64,000 nucleotides of DNA from a virus (lineage: Duplodnaviria; Heunggongvirae; Uroviricota; Caudoviricetes), in IMG/VR virus record IMGVR_UViG_3300027985_001053; one strand, 5' to 3'. Positions 3,525 through 55,668 of the stretch are shown in pieces. Position 1 is the first letter of the stretch; every line of letters starts with the position of its first letter. The notes beneath the pieces were generated by a model. It was not told the origin of the DNA, made no database searches, and saw only the letters and a list, made by a program, of their open reading frames with translations. A program made the translations under genes and the position numbers.

Positions 3525-3776
3525 ATGAAAGATATAGATAAGTTAAGACTAGATTCAACAGGAGATTACTATAACGCAAATGATGTTGAAAAGTTAGTTG
3601 ACTCTCTCAATAAGAAGATAGAAGAGTTAGAGACTTGTAGAAAATGCTTAAGAGTTAAAAACTGTGAAGTGTGTACACATAATACGCTTAAAAGACAAGA
3701 CTGTTATTCAGATAATTTTGTGCTTGACAATGAAAAGTATAAGAATTATTTCACAAAGGAGAATAAGACAGAATGA
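3525..3776 (+). CDS. hypothetical Cys-containing protein
   Basis: 83 aa ORF. Confidence 0.4.
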   Translation: MKDIDKLRLDSTGDYYNANDVEKLVDSLNKKIEELETCRKCLRVKNCEVCTHNTLKRQDCYSDNFVLDNEKYKNYFTKENKTE

Positions 3777-4084
3777 AATGTAATAATACCAAATGTGTAG
3801 AGTATAACCACAAATACCCATTAAATTGTTCTTGTCATGTAGAAGATGAGAGATCAGTTTCAAGGTGTGATTGTTTTCAAAAGAATGAAATAATAGACAT
3901 CAAACAACTAACACTAGACCAATTAAGAGAGCAGTTTGAGATATTTTATATAAATCAAAACGGAACTATGAAAAAGGATTTATTAAGTAGATCAACAAAA
4001 GGTAATTACGGTTTTCATAAGGTTCAAATGATGTGGTTAGTATATAAAGAATGTGCCAGAGCCAACAATATAATTAAGGAGTAG
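3773..4084 (+). CDS. hypothetical protein, paralog of 8618..8923
   Basis: shares IKQLTLDQLREQFE...KECARANNII with IKQLTIEELRKQFE...KCCAKTNNLL. Confidence 0.45.
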   Translation: MKCNNTKCVEYNHKYPLNCSCHVEDERSVSRCDCFQKNEIIDIKQLTLDQLREQFEIFYINQNGTMKKDLLSRSTKGNYGFHKVQMMWLVYKECARANNIIKE

Positions 4085-4699
4085 ATATGAAGTGCCAAAG
4101 AAAACAATGTTTATCGTGCTGTCAATGTATCAGTATGATAAAGATAACATGGATAATATGACAGAGCTTGAATTGATAGAGGGCGTTGTATTACTTGATA
4201 AGCATATTTAAAAATTGTTTGGCTGAATCATTAGCCTGTTGTTTCCGTTTCTTCTCTAATAGTCTCCATCTTTTCATGGTGTCACCTTAATATCTTGGCT
4301 TATCTTTAGTGAATAAAGGTATAAATAGAAAATAAAATGTTGTCTTTACCCTGGGCAATCTCGCTTCTTTCCACATAATCATCTTGATAAACATGTTTTT
4401 TATCTCTTGGCTTAATATAATGTCTCTCTCTCTCTTGTTTTTATAGTAAACACTCTTCTCTCCTTCCTGTTATACGCTTAATCTTCATCTTTAGTAATAA
4501 GTGTTTCAATCACTCCACTCACAAATGTTACTATAATCACTTCGTATGTGATAAGTACCTGTTTAATAGTCATATAGCCCCACCTACAACAAACTTGCTA
4601 ATCAATGTGAACATCCCCACAAACAAACCCCATCTAAGTAAAGATATTATTGCTTTGTTCATCCTCTCTCCTTTATACCCTCCGTAGAGGGCTGTGACA

Positions 4700-22096: not shown

Positions 22097-22858
22097 ATGG
22101 AATATACTTTAGAAGAACTAAATAAAATGATGGAAGAGAATGATGGAAACTTAAGTTTATATAATACTCCGATTAAATCATTACCAGAAGGGTTAAAGGT
22201 TGGAGGTTGGTTAGATTTAAGAAATACCCCAATTAAATCGTTACCAGAAGGATTAACAGTTGGAGGATATTTAGATTTAGAAAATACTGAAATTGAATCT
22301 TTACCAGAAGGATTAACCGTTGGAGGATATTTAGCTTTAAGGTATGCTCCAATTACAACGCTACCAGAAGATTTAAAAGTTGGAGGTACCATATTTAGGG
22401 ATTTACCTGAAAATGAACTCAATTATACAAAACTTAAACAAGGTGATTATGTTAAAGATGAATATCTATATGCCGATGAAATCTTAACTCACATTAAAGC
22501 TAAAAAATCTTTTGATAAGTACACATATTTTATTGGTAAATTTAAAGATAAAAACGTACTTTATGATGGAACTTATTATGCTCACTGTAAAAACATCAAA
22601 CAAGGAATTAAGGATCTTAGCTTCAAACATGCTAAAGATAGAAGAATTGAACAATACAGAAATCTCAAGCTAACAAGTATTCTATCTTTTGAAGAATCAA
22701 AAACAATGTATCGAGTTTTAACTGGAGCATGTAGGCAAGGAACTGAAAGCTTTATTAGTAACTTAAAAACAATAAAAGATCAGTATACAGTACAGGAATT
22801 ACTAGATCTAACTGTTAATCAATATGGGCATGAAACTTTTAAGAAGTTTTTTAGTTAA
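22097..22858 (+). CDS. LRR-family protein (4 repeats plus C-terminal domain)
   Basis: MEYTLEELNKMM leader; C-terminal YTYFIGKFKDKNVLYDGTYYAHCKNIKQG...TGACRQGTESF. Confidence 0.6.
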   Translation: MEYTLEELNKMMEENDGNLSLYNTPIKSLPEGLKVGGWLDLRNTPIKSLPEGLTVGGYLDLENTEIESLPEGLTVGGYLALRYAPITTLPEDLKVGGTIFRDLPENELNYTKLKQGDYVKDEYLYADEILTHIKAKKSFDKYTYFIGKFKDKNVLYDGTYYAHCKNIKQGIKDLSFKHAKDRRIEQYRNLKLTSILSFEESKTMYRVLTGACRQGTESFISNLKTIKDQYTVQELLDLTVNQYGHETFKKFFS

Positions 22859-22943: not shown

Positions 22944-23558
22944 ATGGAATATACTTTAGATGTGTTGAATAAAATGATGGAAGAGAATGATGGAGACTTA
23001 GATTTAAAACATACTGGGATTGAATCGTTACCAGAAGGGTTAACAGTTGGAGGATATTTAGATTTAAGCTATACTTCAATTACATCATTACCTAATGGGT
23101 TAACTGTTGGAGGATGGTTAGATTTAAGAAATACTCAAATTACAACACTACCAGAAGGGTTAACGGTTGGAGGTAGCGTATATTTAAGATATACTCAAAT
23201 TACATCGTTACCTAAAGGATTAACGGTTGGAGGAACCTTAGATTTAGAAGGTACTACAATTACATCGTTACCAAAAGGATTAACCGTTGAAGGAAGCTTA
23301 TATTTAGACTATTCTCGAATAACTTCATTACCAGAAGGGTTAACTGTTGGAGGTTGGTTAGATTTAAGTTATGCTCCAATTGAATCGTTACCAGAAGGGT
23401 TAACTGTTGGAGAAATCTTATATTTAGAAGGTACTAAAATAACATCGTTACCACAAGATTTAAAAGTTGGTGATAAAATCTACGGAGATTTACCAAAGAA
23501 GGAACTACACTGCACAAAACTCCAACAGGACGATTATATTGCATTTGAATACCTATAA
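22944..23558 (+). CDS. LRR-family protein (8 repeats), C-terminal domain deleted
   Basis: ends ...YIAFEYL*; the following 23559..23600 encodes a remnant LAPVKSKKFFS* of the family C-terminus. Confidence 0.55.
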   Translation: MEYTLDVLNKMMEENDGDLDLKHTGIESLPEGLTVGGYLDLSYTSITSLPNGLTVGGWLDLRNTQITTLPEGLTVGGSVYLRYTQITSLPKGLTVGGTLDLEGTTITSLPKGLTVEGSLYLDYSRITSLPEGLTVGGWLDLSYAPIESLPEGLTVGEILYLEGTKITSLPQDLKVGDKIYGDLPKKELHCTKLQQDDYIAFEYL

Positions 23559-47921: not shown

Positions 47922-49439
47922 TTAAAGAATTCCTCGTTCTACGAGATTTTCTATTATCTTATTAGATGTTATATCCTGAATACCTACAGATTCAACCGAT
48001 TTAATAACTTCCTCTAACAACCCTTTCTGTGGTTTCATAGCACCTACATAAACAAGTTCCGTAAATAGTCTTCCACCTATAATTGTTTCAGGACTTTCCA
48101 CTACTTGTTGTTCTGTAAGCTTAATGGCCTCTAAAGTAATAGCTGTTTCTTCAAGGGATTTTTTACCTGCAACATACCTTGTAACTAAGATATTCTCTGT
48201 CATCTTTAAAGCAGACTTTAACTGATTAAGAGTCATCGCATCAGCATCTCTTTTAGCATTTTTAAGCTCCATCTGATATTGAGACAAAGGGTCATCTTCT
48301 AAGCCAAATTGCTTATCAATCTCTACAGCGATATTTACCATACCTTCACCTAATTTTTCTGCTGGCTTATCTTTTTCTAAAGGTTTAATCATTCTTTGGT
48401 CTAAAGATCCACTTTGAACTACCTCAGACTCGTCAATTTCCTTTTTTTCTATTTCCATTTGAACCTCTTCAATTAGTTTTTTATCTTTTAAACTTTTATT
48501 TAACATGCTAACCATAGGTTGCATAAAAAAAGTAATATATCTTAATAGTTGTTGCGTATGCTTACATGATAAAGAATGGTCTTGTATACCTTTCCACCCC
48601 TTACCTTTTGTACCGGTAGTTAAAGGAATATTTGTAGGATAGATGGAAGCATCTAATTGTGATAAGTTGTAATTAGTTCCTTGCCAATGAAACGCTGGAC
48701 AATTACAAAACATTTGAGCATCAACTTCCGATATAAGTTCTTTTAGCTCATCTCTTGTAACAATTCCAGAATCAGATGGTCGAGTATCTAACCATTTAAA
48801 AAAATTAGGAATTCGTATATAAATTTCATACGTTTTTGAGCTATTCTTTTTAAGATCGAACTTAGCTGAAGGGTCAGTTTCCTGTTTCAAATCCTCTAAA
48901 GGAGTTGCTTCTGTTAAAAAACCCCACTCAACATAATCATCGGTTCCTACCTTCTTTACAACGCAGTCAATTAGTTTTACGCTTTTATTCCCTTCACCAA
49001 CTAAAGATCTACGTTCATCATAAAAAACTTTAGTAAAATCTGACATAGACTCCGGATGTTTTAAATCCAGGAGAGTTACTTCCATAACTTTAGATTCCCT
49101 AATAAAATCTTCTGTATACATATGACGATCACGCAAAGCTCCTGCTAAATCAATAAGCATAAACATAGAAGTGTGTATATTCCCTGAAAACTTATCTAAA
49201 TCTACGAAAGGAGATAACGGAGTAGACCGTCCACTACTGAATAGAAAGTCTCTAGGAATGGCTCTTATTACGGAAGCTGTAGAAATAGGAAATGAAGGCC
49301 TTCTACTATCTAACACTACTAAGTAAAGACTATAGTTGACATTCATCACTTTTGATAATTTGACATTTTTAATTTTTTCTATATTAAAGTACTTTCTCAG
49401 AGTTTGAGCTTGAGGAGTACCATTCATAAACTCAGCCAT
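47922..49439 (-). CDS. structural protein
   Basis: 505 aa ORF. Confidence 0.35.
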   Translation of the reverse strand: MAEFMNGTPQAQTLRKYFNIEKIKNVKLSKVMNVNYSLYLVVLDSRRPSFPISTASVIRAIPRDFLFSSGRSTPLSPFVDLDKFSGNIHTSMFMLIDLAGALRDRHMYTEDFIRESKVMEVTLLDLKHPESMSDFTKVFYDERRSLVGEGNKSVKLIDCVVKKVGTDDYVEWGFLTEATPLEDLKQETDPSAKFDLKKNSSKTYEIYIRIPNFFKWLDTRPSDSGIVTRDELKELISEVDAQMFCNCPAFHWQGTNYNLSQLDASIYPTNIPLTTGTKGKGWKGIQDHSLSCKHTQQLLRYITFFMQPMVSMLNKSLKDKKLIEEVQMEIEKKEIDESEVVQSGSLDQRMIKPLEKDKPAEKLGEGMVNIAVEIDKQFGLEDDPLSQYQMELKNAKRDADAMTLNQLKSALKMTENILVTRYVAGKKSLEETAITLEAIKLTEQQVVESPETIIGGRLFTELVYVGAMKPQKGLLEEVIKSVESVGIQDITSNKIIENLVERGIL

Positions 49440-49449
49440 AGTCTAATAG

Positions 49450-50109
49450 TTAAGAAAACATACTCGGACTTATTGAAAATATTTCCTCAGAAGAGTATTC
49501 TATAATCCTCAAATAGTAGGACCCATAAAATCTACAACGAGCTCTTACTACAATATCCTTGTAAAGAGTCCCTATAAAATCCTTTTTACAGGATTCTGTA
49601 AAAACAACACCAACTAAATGAGTTCCTAACAATCTGGTTGATGCATTTTTAGTTGCTCCGCAGAATAAAACTTTAACTTGTTTACCTCTGGCTCTAAGAT
49701 AGATGCTATCCCCGGACAAAGTAATCTCTAATCTGTTAGAAAAAGGCATAGCTTTCAAGGTTTCTAAAAAAGAAAACTTGTACATATCTGCTTCGTGTTG
49801 ATCTTTAGTTAAAAACAAAGTAGAAAAGGGCATAAACGTACAAACCCTAGAAATACCATAAACGTCGGAAAACAATAAAAGTTGTTGTAAATAAATCATG
49901 GAGAGTATCTCGATTAAAGTGGTTCCACATCTATTTAACCCTCCAGGGAGCTGAAGAATACTTCTTGTGTTTTTTGTGTTCCAGTAGCTTCTCAAGACAT
50001 TCACTGTAGATTCTTTTAACTTACTACTAATATCAGTACCTAAATACTCAGGAGTTAAAAACTCGTCAATACTAGGCGGTAGTTTATTAATATTCTGATA
50101 ATTATTCAT
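49450..50109 (-). CDS. truncated paralog of the terminase large-subunit ATPase N-domain
   Basis: LPPSIDEFLTPEYLGTD and RSYW...LQLPGGLNRCGTTLIEILSMIY align with KPPTITEFMTPKYLGDT and FSYW...LSLFIGAGKSFVSTVSAMY of the 52002..54098 gene; P-loop degenerate. Confidence 0.5.
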   Translation of the reverse strand: MNNYQNINKLPPSIDEFLTPEYLGTDISSKLKESTVNVLRSYWNTKNTRSILQLPGGLNRCGTTLIEILSMIYLQQLLLFSDVYGISRVCTFMPFSTLFLTKDQHEADMYKFSFLETLKAMPFSNRLEITLSGDSIYLRARGKQVKVLFCGATKNASTRLLGTHLVGVVFTESCKKDFIGTLYKDIVVRARCRFYGSYYLRIIEYSSEEIFSISPSMFS

Positions 50110-50185
50110 ATAACCTCTTATATAGATAGTACTAGATTAACTTTTCTAAAAAGTATAAGCTTATCAAAGCTAGGAGGCTAAATAG

Positions 50186-50398
50186 ATGAAAACACTTGTA
50201 TTTGCAGTATACAAACTTTTAGTAAGCATTTTATTATTGTTTGGAACATGGTTTGCAATAGGTCCATGGTTATTAAATCAACAATCTAGTTTAATGTACT
50301 TATTGGGAATAATTATCAATATCTCTGTAATCATTCCTGTCGTAAAAATCCTACAAAGTGTAGGTAAAGATATAAAGAAAATAGGAGAAGAACAATGA
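50186..50398 (+). CDS. small 2-TM membrane protein
   Basis: hydrophobic; stop overlaps the next ATG (ATGA). Confidence 0.45.
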   Translation: MKTLVFAVYKLLVSILLLFGTWFAIGPWLLNQQSSLMYLLGIIINISVIIPVVKILQSVGKDIKKIGEEQ

Positions 50399-51273
50399 AA
50401 AAATTACTAATTTTACTAGTAGTTGTGTTAAGTTTTGTTTCTTGTGCGGATAGAGTTTCGCCAGGATATGTCGGTATCAGAACATACCAAAGAGGTGATA
50501 AAGCAGGTCAATCAGAAGTCTTAGGTGTAGGAAAACATTCTTTTGTATGGGCTACATCAACAGTAGTATTTCCTACTTTTAGACAAAACTATGTTTGGAC
50601 GCAAGATCCTACAGAAGGATCCAAACGAGATGAATCTATCAAGTTTGCTATAGAAGGAATGGAGATAGGTGTAGATATAGGTATAGAGTTCTCTGTTATA
50701 CCTGATTCTGTAGCAGTTGTTTATGCTGAATACCGTAAAACTCTCGATGAATTAACAGCAGGGCCTTTAAGAAATTATATTCGAGATGCTATAACGTTTG
50801 CAACTAAAGATTACAACTCTGTTGAAGAGTTTATTACAGGAAACCTATTAACAGTTATCGTATCAGATGCAGCTAAACAAGTTAAAGATCATTTTAGAAC
50901 AAAAGGTATAGATATCTCTAAAGTATATATTATTGGAAAACCACATTACCCACCTAAAATTGTTGCTGAAATTGAAAACAAAGTTATGAAGGTGCAACAA
51001 GCTGCTGCAAAAGAAAACGAGGTTAGAGAAGCCGAGGCTCAAGCAAAAATAAATGAAGCGAAAGCTACAGGAGAGGCAAGAGCTAAAGAGATTTCCGCTG
51101 AAACTAATGCAAGAATTGTAAAACTAAATGCGGATGCTGAGGCATATGCTAATGAGAAAATTAGTAGGTCATTAACACCTTTACTTCTCGAAGATAAGAA
51201 AATAAATAAGTGGAATGGTGTAGAATCTCTCTACAATGCTGACGGTTCTGGAAACATAATATCGATTAAATAA
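50395..51273 (+). CDS. SPFH/band-7 (stomatin/prohibitin-like) lipoprotein
   Basis: lipobox LSFVSC after the signal peptide; SPFH core; Ala/Glu-rich coiled coil AKENEVREAEAQAKINEAKATGEARAKEIS. Confidence 0.65.
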   Translation: MKKLLILLVVVLSFVSCADRVSPGYVGIRTYQRGDKAGQSEVLGVGKHSFVWATSTVVFPTFRQNYVWTQDPTEGSKRDESIKFAIEGMEIGVDIGIEFSVIPDSVAVVYAEYRKTLDELTAGPLRNYIRDAITFATKDYNSVEEFITGNLLTVIVSDAAKQVKDHFRTKGIDISKVYIIGKPHYPPKIVAEIENKVMKVQQAAAKENEVREAEAQAKINEAKATGEARAKEISAETNARIVKLNADAEAYANEKISRSLTPLLLEDKKINKWNGVESLYNADGSGNIISIK

Positions 51274-51303
51274 ATACTACCTTAAATATTTTATTACCAA
51301 TTA

Positions 51304-51379
<76 letters not shown>

Positions 51380-51383
51380 ATGA

Positions 51384-52001
51384 CTATTCACCATTATACC
51401 AACTACTGGTAACAATATGTCTTTCTTCTTGTATAGGCGTTACTATAAGGTCATCTGAAGTCTCAGGGATAGGAACCTCTTCACCTTCAACAGGTAAGTC
51501 TTCTTCCCTAAATTTTTCTATTAAATAGGTCATAGCTAATTGCATCTGATTATCTCCTCTAACACCTTCTAAGGTATTTACTGGAGCTATTAAAAACCGT
51601 TGTTGCTGTACAAAAGTTTTACTCTTTACAAGACGTTTCTTTACCTGGAAGAGCTGTAGAATAAAGTTTTCTTTATCTAACCAGATCTGTCTGAATATAA
51701 AGTCATCTTCAGATAGGATATTATCGAAAGATGTGTAAGCATATTTCGGCAAAACATCATAAATATTAATGCCTTCTGACCCATGGCCATCATTTCCATA
51801 AAGCTCAGTTTCCTGACCTGGAATATCTAAATAGCATTCTACGATTTTCATAGATTGAGGAAATACTCTTTTATCCCTGTAAAGATTTAATTCCTCTGTA
51901 GTAACCAGAACTACACCCGTCTTATTCCCTACTTTCTTGATCTTAGCATTGTAAAGTTTTCTACGTGCCCCGTAATGGGCTCTGTTTAGGTTTTCTTGCA
52001 T
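51384..52001 (-). CDS. hypothetical protein
   Basis: 205 aa ORF. Confidence 0.4.
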   Translation of the reverse strand: MQENLNRAHYGARRKLYNAKIKKVGNKTGVVLVTTEELNLYRDKRVFPQSMKIVECYLDIPGQETELYGNDGHGSEGINIYDVLPKYAYTSFDNILSEDDFIFRQIWLDKENFILQLFQVKKRLVKSKTFVQQQRFLIAPVNTLEGVRGDNQMQLAMTYLIEKFREEDLPVEGEEVPIPETSDDLIVTPIQEERHIVTSSWYNGE

Positions 52002-54098
52002 CTAAACTTCCTCCAAGTGTTTATCTTTTAATAATTTTTTCAAAAGCTGTTCTTTACGAACAGTTCTATCTACATCTGGATCCAAAATTCTAAGCTCATC
52101 TTCGTTATAGACATACCTAGGAGTGCTTTTCATATCAGTATGACAAATATAAACTGCTGCTGCCGTAGAGTCTGAAACGTCATTTTGATACATCCCTGCA
52201 TCTGACAACAACCAACTAGTATTTTCTTTAGATTTCAAAGCATTGGTTTTCCCTTGCATATGGTCAACTTTCAACCCTTTTTTAGTAGGTACTGTAATTA
52301 ATGATTTTAGGTTATTCTTAAAATAAATCTGTTTCCCTGCTTTAAGTCTATGAGTTGATAGCAAGTTTAATAAAAATAAGTAAGGAGCCATTGTAGTCTC
52401 AACTGATTGCTTTTTTACCTGAAAACCTCTACGTTCTAACCATTGAATAGTTCCTTTAGATTCAAACTGGTCAAAAGAGATTCCGGCAATTCTAATATTA
52501 CCGAGAGTCTTTAAATCTACAATAAACTCTCTTATTGCATCCAGGTTTATTTTAGCACCATTTGATAGAATAGGAAACTGAATATCTATTATATAGATTT
52601 CTCTACCCTCTTTATCCAGCTCTTTATGACACATGGTAAATCCCAAAGCATCTGTTTTCTCTGATTGGTCTACGGATATATAACGTTCTTCTAAAGGATT
52701 TCTCCAGAACTGGTACATCCCATTACCTCTAACAAAATAAGTGTTTACTACTTGATTCCATATAAGGTTTTCTGGCTCAAACATAGAGTCGGCTAGAATA
52801 GATGTCATTATAGACTTTAAACCACCCTGGAAACATTCTTCGATACAAGATCTATTAGTAATAAACTTCGCATCGGCTCCTGCCGGAACCCCTGCATAGT
52901 TTTTCAAGTTCCTAATTAAGTCTTCGTCAAATAAAGGTTTTAACTCTAAAGGAGGGTGTATAAGATCAATCTCCTCGTATCGGGATACCTCTGAGTCATT
53001 TAATATTTTAGGTTCTCTAGAAGCATCTCCTTTAAAAATAGAAAACTTAGCTTCTGGATTCTGAATCTCCCATGTTTTATATTCCCAATAGGCTCCGGTA
53101 ACTACTTTATTACGAAAATATCCTTCAGAATCAGCCTTTGCAGATTCCCCTGTATGAATCATTCTATCTATAGAACATTCCATAGTATTTGGGGAAGAGT
53201 CCATAGATGTTCTTGCCAACCAGTTATTACCAAAACGTGAATAAATCCGTCCTTTTAAATCATTATAACTCCTTAAAATATAATCATCACTAAAACCACG
53301 ATCTAAGAAAAACGTTAACTCTGATATAGTACCTCCTAAAATAGAAAGACCTAATAACTTAGCTGGGTCTGAAATATTCTTAATACCTAAACCATCCTTA
53401 CCATCCCATGTTGGAAAAGATAAATCCATAGTTTTACCAGCAGTAGTCCAACAAACTTTAGAAGCTCCATAATCTTTTTGAGTATTCCTCATTTGCTCGA
53501 TAGTACGGCATTTTTCGTACATTGGGGAAGTTTCTAAGATATTTATCATCGGGTCTACTAAAAGCTCTCTAGCCTTATCCTGAGTGAATGAGAAGGCTAC
53601 AGCACATACTAATGATGCAGGGGAGAGACCTAATTCTTTTTTAGGATTCCTTTTAAGAAAATAGAGATAGTTTTGATACATTGCAGAAACTGTAGATACA
53701 AAAGACTTTCCTGCTCCAATAAATAATGATAATATCAAATGCCTATAGTCATTACCAAACTCCCAGTAATCCGCCATAATATCTAACCAGTACGAGAATA
53801 TATTCTCACCAGTATCCCCTAAATACTTTGGAGTCATAAACTCTGTTATCGTTGGAGGTTTCGATACATAGCTAAACTTCCAGGGATTTTTCATAATATT
53901 TAATAAGTCTTTTTGAGGAAGGTTTGGATTATTAACTAAAAACTCTAAGGACTGTTGTATAAGCTTAATATCATATTTCTCATCTAAGTCTTTATATAAA
54001 GCATCATCTCCCTGAAAAAAGTCAAGAAGCATGTTTGCTGGATCTGAAATAGCAGGTTTATGAATAATAGGTGGCTTTATATTATCAGTAATATTCAT
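52002..54098 (-). CDS. terL: terminase large subunit
   Basis: Walker A-like LSLFIGAGKSFVS; nuclease motif YISVDQSEKTDALGFTMCHKELDKEGREIYIIDIQ patterned like T4 gp17 [21 protein letters not shown]. Confidence 0.65.
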   Translation of the reverse strand: MNITDNIKPPIIHKPAISDPANMLLDFFQGDDALYKDLDEKYDIKLIQQSLEFLVNNPNLPQKDLLNIMKNPWKFSYVSKPPTITEFMTPKYLGDTGENIFSYWLDIMADYWEFGNDYRHLILSLFIGAGKSFVSTVSAMYQNYLYFLKRNPKKELGLSPASLVCAVAFSFTQDKARELLVDPMINILETSPMYEKCRTIEQMRNTQKDYGASKVCWTTAGKTMDLSFPTWDGKDGLGIKNISDPAKLLGLSILGGTISELTFFLDRGFSDDYILRSYNDLKGRIYSRFGNNWLARTSMDSSPNTMECSIDRMIHTGESAKADSEGYFRNKVVTGAYWEYKTWEIQNPEAKFSIFKGDASREPKILNDSEVSRYEEIDLIHPPLELKPLFDEDLIRNLKNYAGVPAGADAKFITNRSCIEECFQGGLKSIMTSILADSMFEPENLIWNQVVNTYFVRGNGMYQFWRNPLEERYISVDQSEKTDALGFTMCHKELDKEGREIYIIDIQFPILSNGAKINLDAIREFIVDLKTLGNIRIAGISFDQFESKGTIQWLERRGFQVKKQSVETTMAPYLFLLNLLSTHRLKAGKQIYFKNNLKSLITVPTKKGLKVDHMQGKTNALKSKENTSWLLSDAGMYQNDVSDSTAAAVYICHTDMKSTPRYVYNEDELRILDPDVDRTVRKEQLLKKLLKDKHLEEV

Positions 54099-54171: not shown

Positions 54172-55668
54172 TTACATTACGTCTGTATTTAGAAGTAATA
54201 TACTATTAATATACTTATCTTGAAGTACTGCTTGGTCCTCATAAGTAACCAAACCACTTTCAGTATAGAACTCTGCTGGATGAGTTAGTTTACCCTCGAA
54301 TCTTCCAATAGGTAGGAAAACTCCGAAACTTAAAGAAGCATCATTTGCATCCTCTTCACCATTCTTGTAAACAGTGATAATTTCATCCGGTGCTACACCT
54401 GTAGAACCTGCGGCAGCAGACGCACCTGCATCGATACCACCAGAAACATCTACATATACTGGAAGACCTTCATAAGTACCAGCCTTGTAAACACCTACAG
54501 CGTTAGGTTTAGATTCTCTCACATAACCATCAACCTTAGTTAAATACTCTTGAGCAACAGCACCACAAATTAAATGTGAAATACCACCGTGACCAATTGC
54601 ATTTTGAGTTCTATGAGCAGCTTTATCAATATACTGTTTTAAATCTTGAGCTCTCATGCTAGAAGACGCAGCTCCTAGAGTTACCCAGTCAGCATCAAAA
54701 GTTATTTGAGTTGCCCAAGAAGAAACAGATTTAGCTGTTCTAATTGCTCTAAAACCTTGAGCTTTTACCATTTCTCTAGATGCTCCTGAGATAAGAGTTC
54801 TTTCAGCCCCCATCTTAAGCTGGTCATCCATCATTAAAGATGTCATGTGTGACCATTTTACTGCTAAAGGTTGTGGTTTAGCTTGGAAATCGTAAGCTCT
54901 TAGGTTAATATCCACAGTCTTTATTTGATTATACTGAGAAGGATCTTCTGTATTAACCCCATATTCAACAGTCATTGTTGCACCTGCTAAAGTAGCAGAA
55001 GCTAAAGTACCGCTTATTTCACCTGTTTTTAGGTTTACCCAAGATAGCGAAGCTAACGAAATACCAGGACCTACAATTCTTGCTTTATCAGCACTACCAC
55101 CTGTACCTGCTACACCATTATCATAACCTACTGGTTGACCATTTAAATAAATAGTAACAGATGTTGCTCTTACAACTTTATTAACGGCTGCTAAAGTAAA
55201 CGCATCTGTAGTAGCTACGTGCGTTAAAGCTGCTGTAACAATTTCTGTAGGATAATCGAAGTTAGCAAGAGTATTTCTCATAATCTCGCCTTTGTAAGGA
55301 CCTTCTGCGTAAGCTGTTTGAACTCTATAAATAGAATCCTTCATTCCGGACATCGCCCAAACGTTAAAGATATCGGATCTAATATCATTAACTGCTGTTA
55401 AGTTAATAACCTTTACAATTGTTTGTGGAGTAACTTGGAAAGTATCCGAAATCTGAGTTTCCGTCATCTTTGATAACATTTTCTCAGTATTTTCTAGTAA
55501 TCTAGCAATATTTCTAGCTTTTCTAAAGTTCTTAGTTGCTAAAGAATCTAAAGCACCCTCTTTAAACAAACCTCTCTCAGCACCCCATCTATTAATAAGA
55601 TTTCGGTCTTCTCGTAAAATTCTTTCTTCGTGAATTTTCTTAGATTCTACCATTTTATTGTTTATCAT
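54172..55668 (-). CDS. major capsid protein (T4 gp23-like, tentative)
   Basis: 498 aa; segmental resemblance to gp23; placed after scaffold/protease. Confidence 0.5.
   Translation of the reverse strand: MINNKMVESKKIHEERILREDRNLINRWGAERGLFKEGALDSLATKNFRKARNIARLLENTEKMLSKMTETQISDTFQVTPQTIVKVINLTAVNDIRSDIFNVWAMSGMKDSIYRVQTAYAEGPYKGEIMRNTLANFDYPTEIVTAALTHVATTDAFTLAAVNKVVRATSVTIYLNGQPVGYDNGVAGTGGSADKARIVGPGISLASLSWVNLKTGEISGTLASATLAGATMTVEYGVNTEDPSQYNQIKTVDINLRAYDFQAKPQPLAVKWSHMTSLMMDDQLKMGAERTLISGASREMVKAQGFRAIRTAKSVSSWATQITFDADWVTLGAASSSMRAQDLKQYIDKAAHRTQNAIGHGGISHLICGAVAQEYLTKVDGYVRESKPNAVGVYKAGTYEGLPVYVDVSGGIDAGASAAAGSTGVAPDEIITVYKNGEEDANDASLSFGVFLPIGRFEGKLTHPAEFYTESGLVTYEDQAVLQDKYINSILLLNTDVM

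Follow-up and report, generated by a model that had tools for sequence, protein, structure and literature searches.

Gene content of the locus

The window, by which we mean the whole 64,000-nt stretch of Caudoviricetes DNA analyzed here (IMG/VR record IMGVR_UViG_3300027985_001053), is a low-GC (~32%) myovirus segment. Its late module, encoded on the minus strand, comprises the genes for the major capsid protein (54172..55668), the large terminase subunit TerL (52002..54098) and a 205-aa product (gp205; 51384..52001) and, further on, those for a 505-aa product (gp505; 47922..49439), a 244-aa product and the tail sheath. The 698-aa terL product, hereafter the resident TerL, is a genuine large terminase with an intact GAGKS Walker A, a Walker B and a nuclease part: in tblastn it matches annotated TerLs from phages of Vibrio, Maribacter, Yersinia and Rhizobium (22-27% identity, E down to 1e-23), and it has a weak TerL match in PHROG. 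gp205 is a conserved gene, in synteny by tblastn with the related loci L001, L005, L006 and L013.

An additional open reading frame, ORF219 (49450..50109, minus strand), lies between gp205 and gp505. It is an intact frame of 219 codons in AT-rich DNA, which starts with ATG and is preceded, 4 nt ahead of this codon, by the Shine-Dalgarno (SD) sequence AAGAGG (50114..50119, minus strand); most genes of the window use AAGGAG-type SD sites. The ORF list, homology searches and AF2/Foldseek modeling identify its product as a stand-alone protein derived from the TerL ATPase core. The stop codon of ORF219 is followed after 10 nt by the start codon of gp505, a conserved gene that has no SD sequence; its homologues in relatives are also without a clear SD, though they start 26-54 nt past the preceding stop codon. 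gp505 is not TerL-like, is kept in the relatives and has no match in Pfam or PHROG. It carries a SWIM-like CxC...CxH motif (FCNCPAFHWQG...SLSCKHTQ) that is conserved in L001 (10942-12519). Elsewhere in the window, an identical 22-nt leader, GATAAAGAAAAGAGAGGATAAT (or ...ACT), stands before the ATG of plus-strand ORFs at 22944, 23691 and 27444, with variants at 22097 and 25038 on the same strand, and resembles a repeated regulatory or translation-initiation cassette of the early region.

Between gp205 and ORF219, on the plus strand, lies a two-gene accessory cassette (50186..51273) in which a 70-aa membrane protein with two transmembrane segments overlaps a 292-aa SPFH/Band-7 lipoprotein; the latter was identified in both Pfam (Band_7, E = 1.9e-14) and PHROG (200, E = 1.7e-56). 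The initial annotation had put ORF219 three genes downstream of terL and found this position unusual. The place is indeed odd, and is explained by the insertion described below, but the count needs amending: ORF219 is the fourth ORF, with gp205 and the two opposite-strand genes in between.

Homology of ORF219 to the TerL ATPase core

The similarity that had been proposed between residues of about 10-70 of ORF219 and 80-150 of the resident TerL was recovered by BLASTP, which paired aa 11-80 of ORF219 with aa 81-147 of the resident TerL at 33% identity (alignment of 72 aa, E = 5e-6); the Smith-Waterman score of the two proteins stands 8.8 SD above those of 500 shuffles. The significant similarity proved to be wider than this. 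Among the 22 TerLs of the family recovered from the protein database, P0015, a distant member that is 36% identical to the resident TerL, aligns through its aa 87-310 with aa 11-215 of ORF219 (24% identity, E = 4e-14), an alignment that begins at the pre-Walker-A motif and reaches as far as the C-motif. An HMM of the TerL family matches ORF219 with E = 7e-11, plus a second, colinear segment that spans Walker B to the C-motif, and a screen of 1347 six-frame ORFs, taken from the window and from nine loci, yielded no match to the family besides the TerLs and ORF219. When the 22 TerLs were compared with the whole insertion by tblastn, the homologous DNA extended over 49465..50094 (minus strand) and followed the ORF219 reading frame throughout; the other frames and the rest of the insertion contained no TerL remnant, no compensated frameshift was found, and all length differences between ORF219 and the TerLs are in frame. 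Judged by sequence, ORF219 is thus over its whole length a descendant of the ATPase core of a large terminase that, like the resident enzyme, belongs to this TerL family.

ORF219 has no match in Pfam, PHROGs or PADLOC. No homologue other than ORF219 itself was found by tblastn in 50,697 phage records (INPHARED), by pattern scans of IMG/VR, by a search of 5.8 billion clusters or by exhaustive HMMER on 1.84 billion representatives, which amount to ~15 billion proteins in all. ORF219 is hence a singleton, seen in one genome only, and no conservation backs a function for it. The contig itself turned up in a JGI metagenome and in Logan run SRR7216773.

The family alignment shows which parts of the ATPase core have been kept. 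In the family, the Walker A motif reads I-G/R-x-G-K-S, with GIRCGKS in P0015 and GAGKS in the resident TerL. The corresponding stretch of ORF219, GGLNRCGTT (G56-T64; 49918..49944, minus strand), contains one inserted residue and a threonine in place of the P-loop lysine (K63T), a column that is Lys in 20/20 TerLs; the degeneration of GAGKS to GGLNRCGTT, recognized from the start, is thereby upheld. A Walker B-like strand, LVGVVFTE (49594..49617, minus strand), follows the family pattern hhhh[ST]E and retains the catalytic glutamate, E172, which together with L161 and G162 belongs to the invariant columns common to ORF219 and all 20 TerLs. The C-motif is reduced to YSS (49489..49497, minus strand) versus DSS-PN in the family, with S206 and S207 kept and D205, P208 and N209 lost, and ORF219 ends 12 residues past these serines. 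Also kept are the N-terminal motif K-PP-I-EFLTP-YLG, the motif LLG, and R189 and R193 in the helix after Walker B; the MRNPKK, CWTTA and FF motifs are lost, the last by deletion. In all, ORF219 retains 13/30 near-invariant columns of the family and has lost 17/30, and the losses are unevenly spread, given that 0/10 such columns are kept in aa 81-155 versus 13/20 in the flanks (Fisher P = 0.001).

The initial annotation described a truncated protein, which holds, but for both ends: the equivalent of TerL aa 1-75 is missing, as well as everything past the C-motif, including the lid and the nuclease. From the end of ORF219, the family alignment runs on for ~160 aa before it reaches the nuclease motif SVDQS. 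In agreement with the length of about 219 aa without a nuclease domain noted at the outset, ORF219 has no C-terminal RNase H-like domain, no TerL similarity was found downstream or in other frames, and the following gene is not TerL-like. Neither does ORF219 contain a complete ATPase domain with lid/subdomain II, as seen from the family alignment and from the partial coverage in Foldseek, in which only part of the 250-aa ATPase domain of P74-26 is covered (target-normalised TM-score 0.49).

AF2, when provided with the TerL alignment, predicted an alpha/beta ASCE fold (pLDDT 83.9, pTM 0.84), and the top PDB matches of this model in Foldseek are the ATPase domains of the TerLs of D6E (5oee), T4 (gp17, 2o0h), P74-26 (7ks4) and HK97 (6z6d). 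The single-sequence prediction reached a pLDDT of 35, which indicates that the high confidence of the model depends on the TerL alignment and that the model does not constitute independent evidence of folding. ORF219 resembles the N-terminal ATPase domains of known TerLs (T4 gp17, 2o0h/3cpe; P74-26, 4zni/7ks4; D6E, 5oee; HK97, 6z6d) in its predicted ASCE fold and Walker B glutamate, and differs from them by the absence of the Walker A lysine, the lid, the nuclease and the N-terminal 75 aa. A protein that has lost the P-loop lysine and is missing its lid, nuclease and N-terminal region cannot be a working terminase, and normal ATP hydrolysis, DNA translocation and DNA cutting are predicted to be precluded.

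The insertion and the origin of ORF219

Presence of ORF219 in related phages had been suggested as a check, and the result was negative. In L001/L002 and L005/L006 (three related contigs, two phage lineages), whose TerLs are 73-75% identical to that of the window and whose gene order is the same, the homologues of gp205 and gp505 are directly joined, with a gap of 26-54 nt. The window carries ~1.9 kb of extra DNA at this point, consisting, in minus-strand order, of a (GATA)n microsatellite, a palindrome, the SPFH gene and the 70-aa gene on the opposite strand, a 76-bp divergent spacer and ORF219. TerL identities place the window together with P0003 and leave P0004 outside this pair, so that the parsimonious scenario is one gain, in the lineage of the window. 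The left edge of the insertion (51302..51379) is formed by the palindrome, with 21-nt arms (51302-51343), located between convergent genes, and by a perfect (TATC)9.5 microsatellite (51342-51379) that abuts the gp205 stop codon. At the right junction, the 20 nt leading up to the start of gp505, TTCTTAACTATTAGACTATG (49437..49456, minus strand), match the L005 spacer TTCTTAACTATAAGTGTATG (P = 0.0005 versus shuffles) and represent the native spacer upstream of gp505. This spacer holds the stop codon of ORF219 (TAA, 49450-49452), and TerL homology extends to within a few codons of it, which shows the 3′ end of ORF219 to be a recombination junction rather than an evolved domain boundary.

Similarity between the ORF219 leader and the L001 spacer did not reach significance (P = 0.10), and a candidate late-promoter motif upstream of ORF219, CTATATAAG, is not enriched in the window (48 found vs 46 expected). 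In L013, whose TerL is 69% identical to that of the window, an unrelated inserted ORF of 332 aa (3673-4671), with no significant Pfam match, separates TerL from the gp205 homologue, which makes this neighbourhood an insertion hot spot; tetranucleotide repeats may mark it. A (CTAA)n-like run is seen just upstream of the gp205 homologue of L013 (~4665-4690). In the window, an 11-nt sequence just upstream of the ORF219 start, TATATAGATAG (50119-50129), is an inverted match, at 10/11 positions, to the microsatellite at 51342-51379, so that the SPFH cassette is bracketed by short inverted GATA-type repeats; such a match could arise by chance in AT-rich DNA. L005 (1280-2728) and L006 (49-1497) each contain an IS200/IS605-type pair (Y1 transposase and OrfB/TnpB-like) upstream of the structural module.

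The SPFH cassette belongs to the same lineage-specific insertion as ORF219 and lies midway through the late operon, in reverse orientation to the late genes. Such cassettes are common and travel among phages: 374 phage records contain one, including those of Stx2 phages, BcepF1, the N4-like phage Pokken and roseophages; BcepF1 has an identical two-gene layout, as does L014, which carries the closest cassette (73% aa identity). We considered co-transfer of ORF219 with the cassette and found it unsupported: no TerL-like gene adjoins the cassettes of L014, L015, BcepF1, DSS3_MAL1 and Pokken, and the DNA similarity between the window and L014 ends at the coding borders of the cassette. Conversely, no SPFH gene or TerL fragment was found near P0015, P0013 or P0017, the TerLs with the longest alignments to ORF219. 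The two need not have arrived together.

The initial annotation regarded ORF219 as a paralogue of the resident TerL. ORF219 is equally distant from all TerLs of the family, with 19-24% identity to every one of them, including TerLs that are themselves only 30-40% identical to the resident TerL, and 21.5% to the latter; a foreign origin is therefore more likely than a recent duplication. Its best score is with P0015 (195, vs 140 with the resident TerL and at most 148 with any other), and the two have the residues RCG of the P-loop in common. Moreover, ORF219 is identical to the resident TerL at 13/30 invariant versus 30/170 variable columns (Fisher P = 0.003; binomial P = 2e-4 against 0.30), an inequality that contradicts uniform decay from the resident copy. 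Taken together, the sequence comparisons favour ORF219 as a xenologue acquired from an unsampled, distant member of the family, an argument that assumes uniform drift. Use of a strong SD was also considered as a marker of foreign origin and was rejected, since strong SDs occur in most native genes too.

For ORF219 to be a recent in-genome paralogue, a segment that starts at about TerL codon 75 and includes gp205 would have been duplicated in tandem. Loss of everything between the C-motif and the end of the second gp205 would then have left TerL'(75-315) before gp505; this remnant would have diverged fast, and the SPFH cassette would have been inserted later. This scheme accounts well for a site 1.9 kb from terL, between gp205 and gp505, with the native right-junction spacer retained, and the best-conserved stretch of ORF219 does show 33% identity to the resident TerL. 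It agrees poorly with an overall identity to the resident TerL that does not exceed the identity to TerLs from distant clades, with the higher score of P0015, with the RCG of the P-loop, which P0015 shares, and with variable columns so much less conserved than invariant ones. We thus keep the description of ORF219 as a truncated derivative of a TerL ATPase and consider a recent duplication within this genome unlikely; as a claim about origin, it would fit either of the two main functional readings discussed below.

The open frame and possible roles of ORF219

To what extent the ORF219 frame could have stayed open by itself was estimated by simulating the neutral decay of the ATPase segment of the resident TerL or of P0015 (2000 runs). 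The probability that no stop codon appeared was 0.018 at 0.1 substitutions per site and 0.05-0.25% at 0.2, and no run out of 2000 remained open at 0.3 or more (<5e-4). Given that the loss of 57% of the invariant residues implies ~0.3-0.4 substitutions per site, these values show that the frame was held open by selection after catalysis was lost. A regulatory or decoy role, as first proposed, is possible, and an open frame in spite of heavy divergence is the sole positive evidence for a use of ORF219. The simulation also bears on whether ORF219 might be an untranslated, dead pseudogene that is still open by luck, or a chance ORF, as would fit its truncation at both ends, its lost catalytic residues, its poor codon usage and its lack of homologues. 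A dead pseudogene is difficult to reconcile with the simulated decay, the strong SD, the ATG start and the absence of frameshifts, and a chance ORF with a rough estimate of ~1e-7 for an open frame of 219 codons at 33% GC; the highly significant homology to TerL argues against both. We regard this explanation as very improbable.

Other observations argue against a protein in use. The codon-usage score of ORF219 (0.035) is the lowest of 51 genes in the window, lies in the range of spurious ORFs and falls below the minimum of the 50 reference genes (0.065). For a foreign ancestor, the hydrophobic pattern is conserved no more than expected from drift in which only stop codons are avoided (d = 0.3-0.4, P = 0.1-0.5); for the resident TerL as ancestor, its conservation exceeds that expectation (P = 0.003 at d = 0.7) and would point to structural constraint. 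Together with the lack of any homologue, the low codon score and, for a foreign ancestor, the drift-like hydrophobic pattern count against a used protein, and so does the junction-set 3′ end, which cuts the ATPase domain short of the lid.

ORF219 might accordingly be a translated relic without a function of its own, a foreign TerL fragment trapped at the insertion, in which only openness is selected and the amino acid sequence drifts. It would then be the first cistron of a late transcript that restarts after the opposite-strand cassette, and ribosomes would have to travel to its stop codon, 10 nt before the SD-less and essential gp505, in a form of translational coupling that avoids polarity. 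The position of this stop inside the native spacer and the missing SD of gp505 fit such a role, as do the palindromic terminator and opposite-strand cassette that cut gp505 off from the upstream late genes; the worst codon usage of the window, the lost catalytic residues, the hydrophobic pattern expected from stop-avoiding drift at d = 0.3-0.4 and the absence of ORF219 from relatives, as a singleton, fit as well. What it leaves unexplained is the length of 219 codons, since a short ORF would suffice for coupling and useless DNA is quickly deleted from phage genomes. Uniform drift does not predict the uneven loss of invariant columns (P = 0.001), and strict coupling may be unneeded, as gp505 homologues in relatives have no clear SD at a distance of 26-54 nt. 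We consider a relic of this kind, the main alternative, possible with considerable reservations.

At the other extreme, ORF219 could be an active, unconventional ATPase or a second packaging enzyme. The Walker B glutamate and the outline of a G-x4-G-T-T P-loop with an arginine inside the loop are compatible with activity. However, the Walker A lysine present in 20/20 TerLs is missing, 17/30 invariant residues are lost, FF is deleted, the protein has no lid, nuclease or N-terminal domain, and an intact resident TerL is at hand, so that we consider this possibility extremely remote.

The reading that we tentatively put first, without holding it to be established as probable, is that ORF219 encodes a translated, non-catalytic mimic of the TerL core that is kept as a protein. 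ORF219 either arrived with, or was created within, the lineage-specific insertion of ~1.9 kb between two conserved late genes, and a recombination junction fixed its 3′ end. The disarmed product would bind a putative partner of the TerL core, either neighbouring TerL subunits, TerS or portal, or a host sensor, and binding without ATP turnover would modulate or poison packaging motors instead of powering them. Inactive subunits can poison ring ATPases. In addition, the ATPase domain of TerL is by itself sufficient for recognition by Avs2 and Upx, so that a disarmed copy of this domain could matter in immunity or in competition between phages. A more specific version, which we think improbable, has ORF219 used in conflict, either as a dominant-negative subunit that stalls the pentameric motors of co-infecting relatives or as a ligand that occupies Avs1-3/Upx sensors, and forming with the SPFH cassette a small island of competition or exclusion within the structural module; as a decoy, ORF219 would fill Avs1-3/Upx receptors without offering the ATP-bound surface needed for activation.

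Non-catalytic copies of RecA/ASCE ATPases that persist as proteins (pseudoenzymes) are exemplified by the RAD51 paralogues. ORF219 is similar to them in concept, as a copy of an ATPase core that has lost catalytic residues, and differs by the lack of conservation across species. It equally resembles moron or cassette-junction fragments, being lineage-specific, adjacent to a travelling SPFH cassette and terminated by a junction; such fragments are usually short-lived and disrupted, whereas ORF219 has 219 intact codons and an SD despite deep divergence.

A closer parallel is T4 vs.8 (NP_049732), a stand-alone protein of 219 aa reported in 2026 as homologous to the ATPase domain of gp17, with intact Walker motifs, an uncharacterised function and toxicity in combination with EcAvs2 (PMC13601566). 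Like ORF219, it is encoded by a myovirus, resembles only the ATPase core of the TerL type of its own phage, is without a nuclease and is taxonomically restricted. In contrast to ORF219, in which the Walker A lysine is absent and only Walker B is kept, vs.8 retains both Walker A (GRQSGKS) and Walker B (IIDE); it belongs to a family in T4-like phages and lies in the early-gene region, whereas ORF219 is a singleton located in an insertion of the late structural module. By BLASTP, the best match of ORF219 to vs.8 has E = 4, so that ORF219 is not a sequence member of the vs.8 family, and no direct similarity of ORF219 to T4 gp17 was found. From this lack of similarity we conclude that the two have independent origins, with ORF219 a degenerate analogue rather than a family member. 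The similarity of vs.8 to gp17 is itself weak in plain BLASTP, and their relationship rests on the published analysis (PMC13601566).

Stand-alone copies of the terminase motor domain are barely described, vs.8 having been noted only in 2026. If ORF219 is an independent copy with a dead P-loop, phages would have turned the TerL ATPase core to non-motor purposes more than once, with a bearing on research into packaging motors, through poisoned rings, and into bacterial immunity, in which Avs1-3 and Upx recognise the ATPase domain. Should ORF219 be no more than a trapped fragment, it would offer a clean example of how a cassette inserted into a late operon makes new ORFs from essential genes, and of an ORF held open without sequence conservation.

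The TerL family also hosts inteins. In P0009 (1042 aa), an intein with a LAGLIDADG domain (PF14528) is inserted right after the GAGK of Walker A, and P0022 starts with the C-terminal end of an intein just ahead of the SDDYI helix that follows Walker B.
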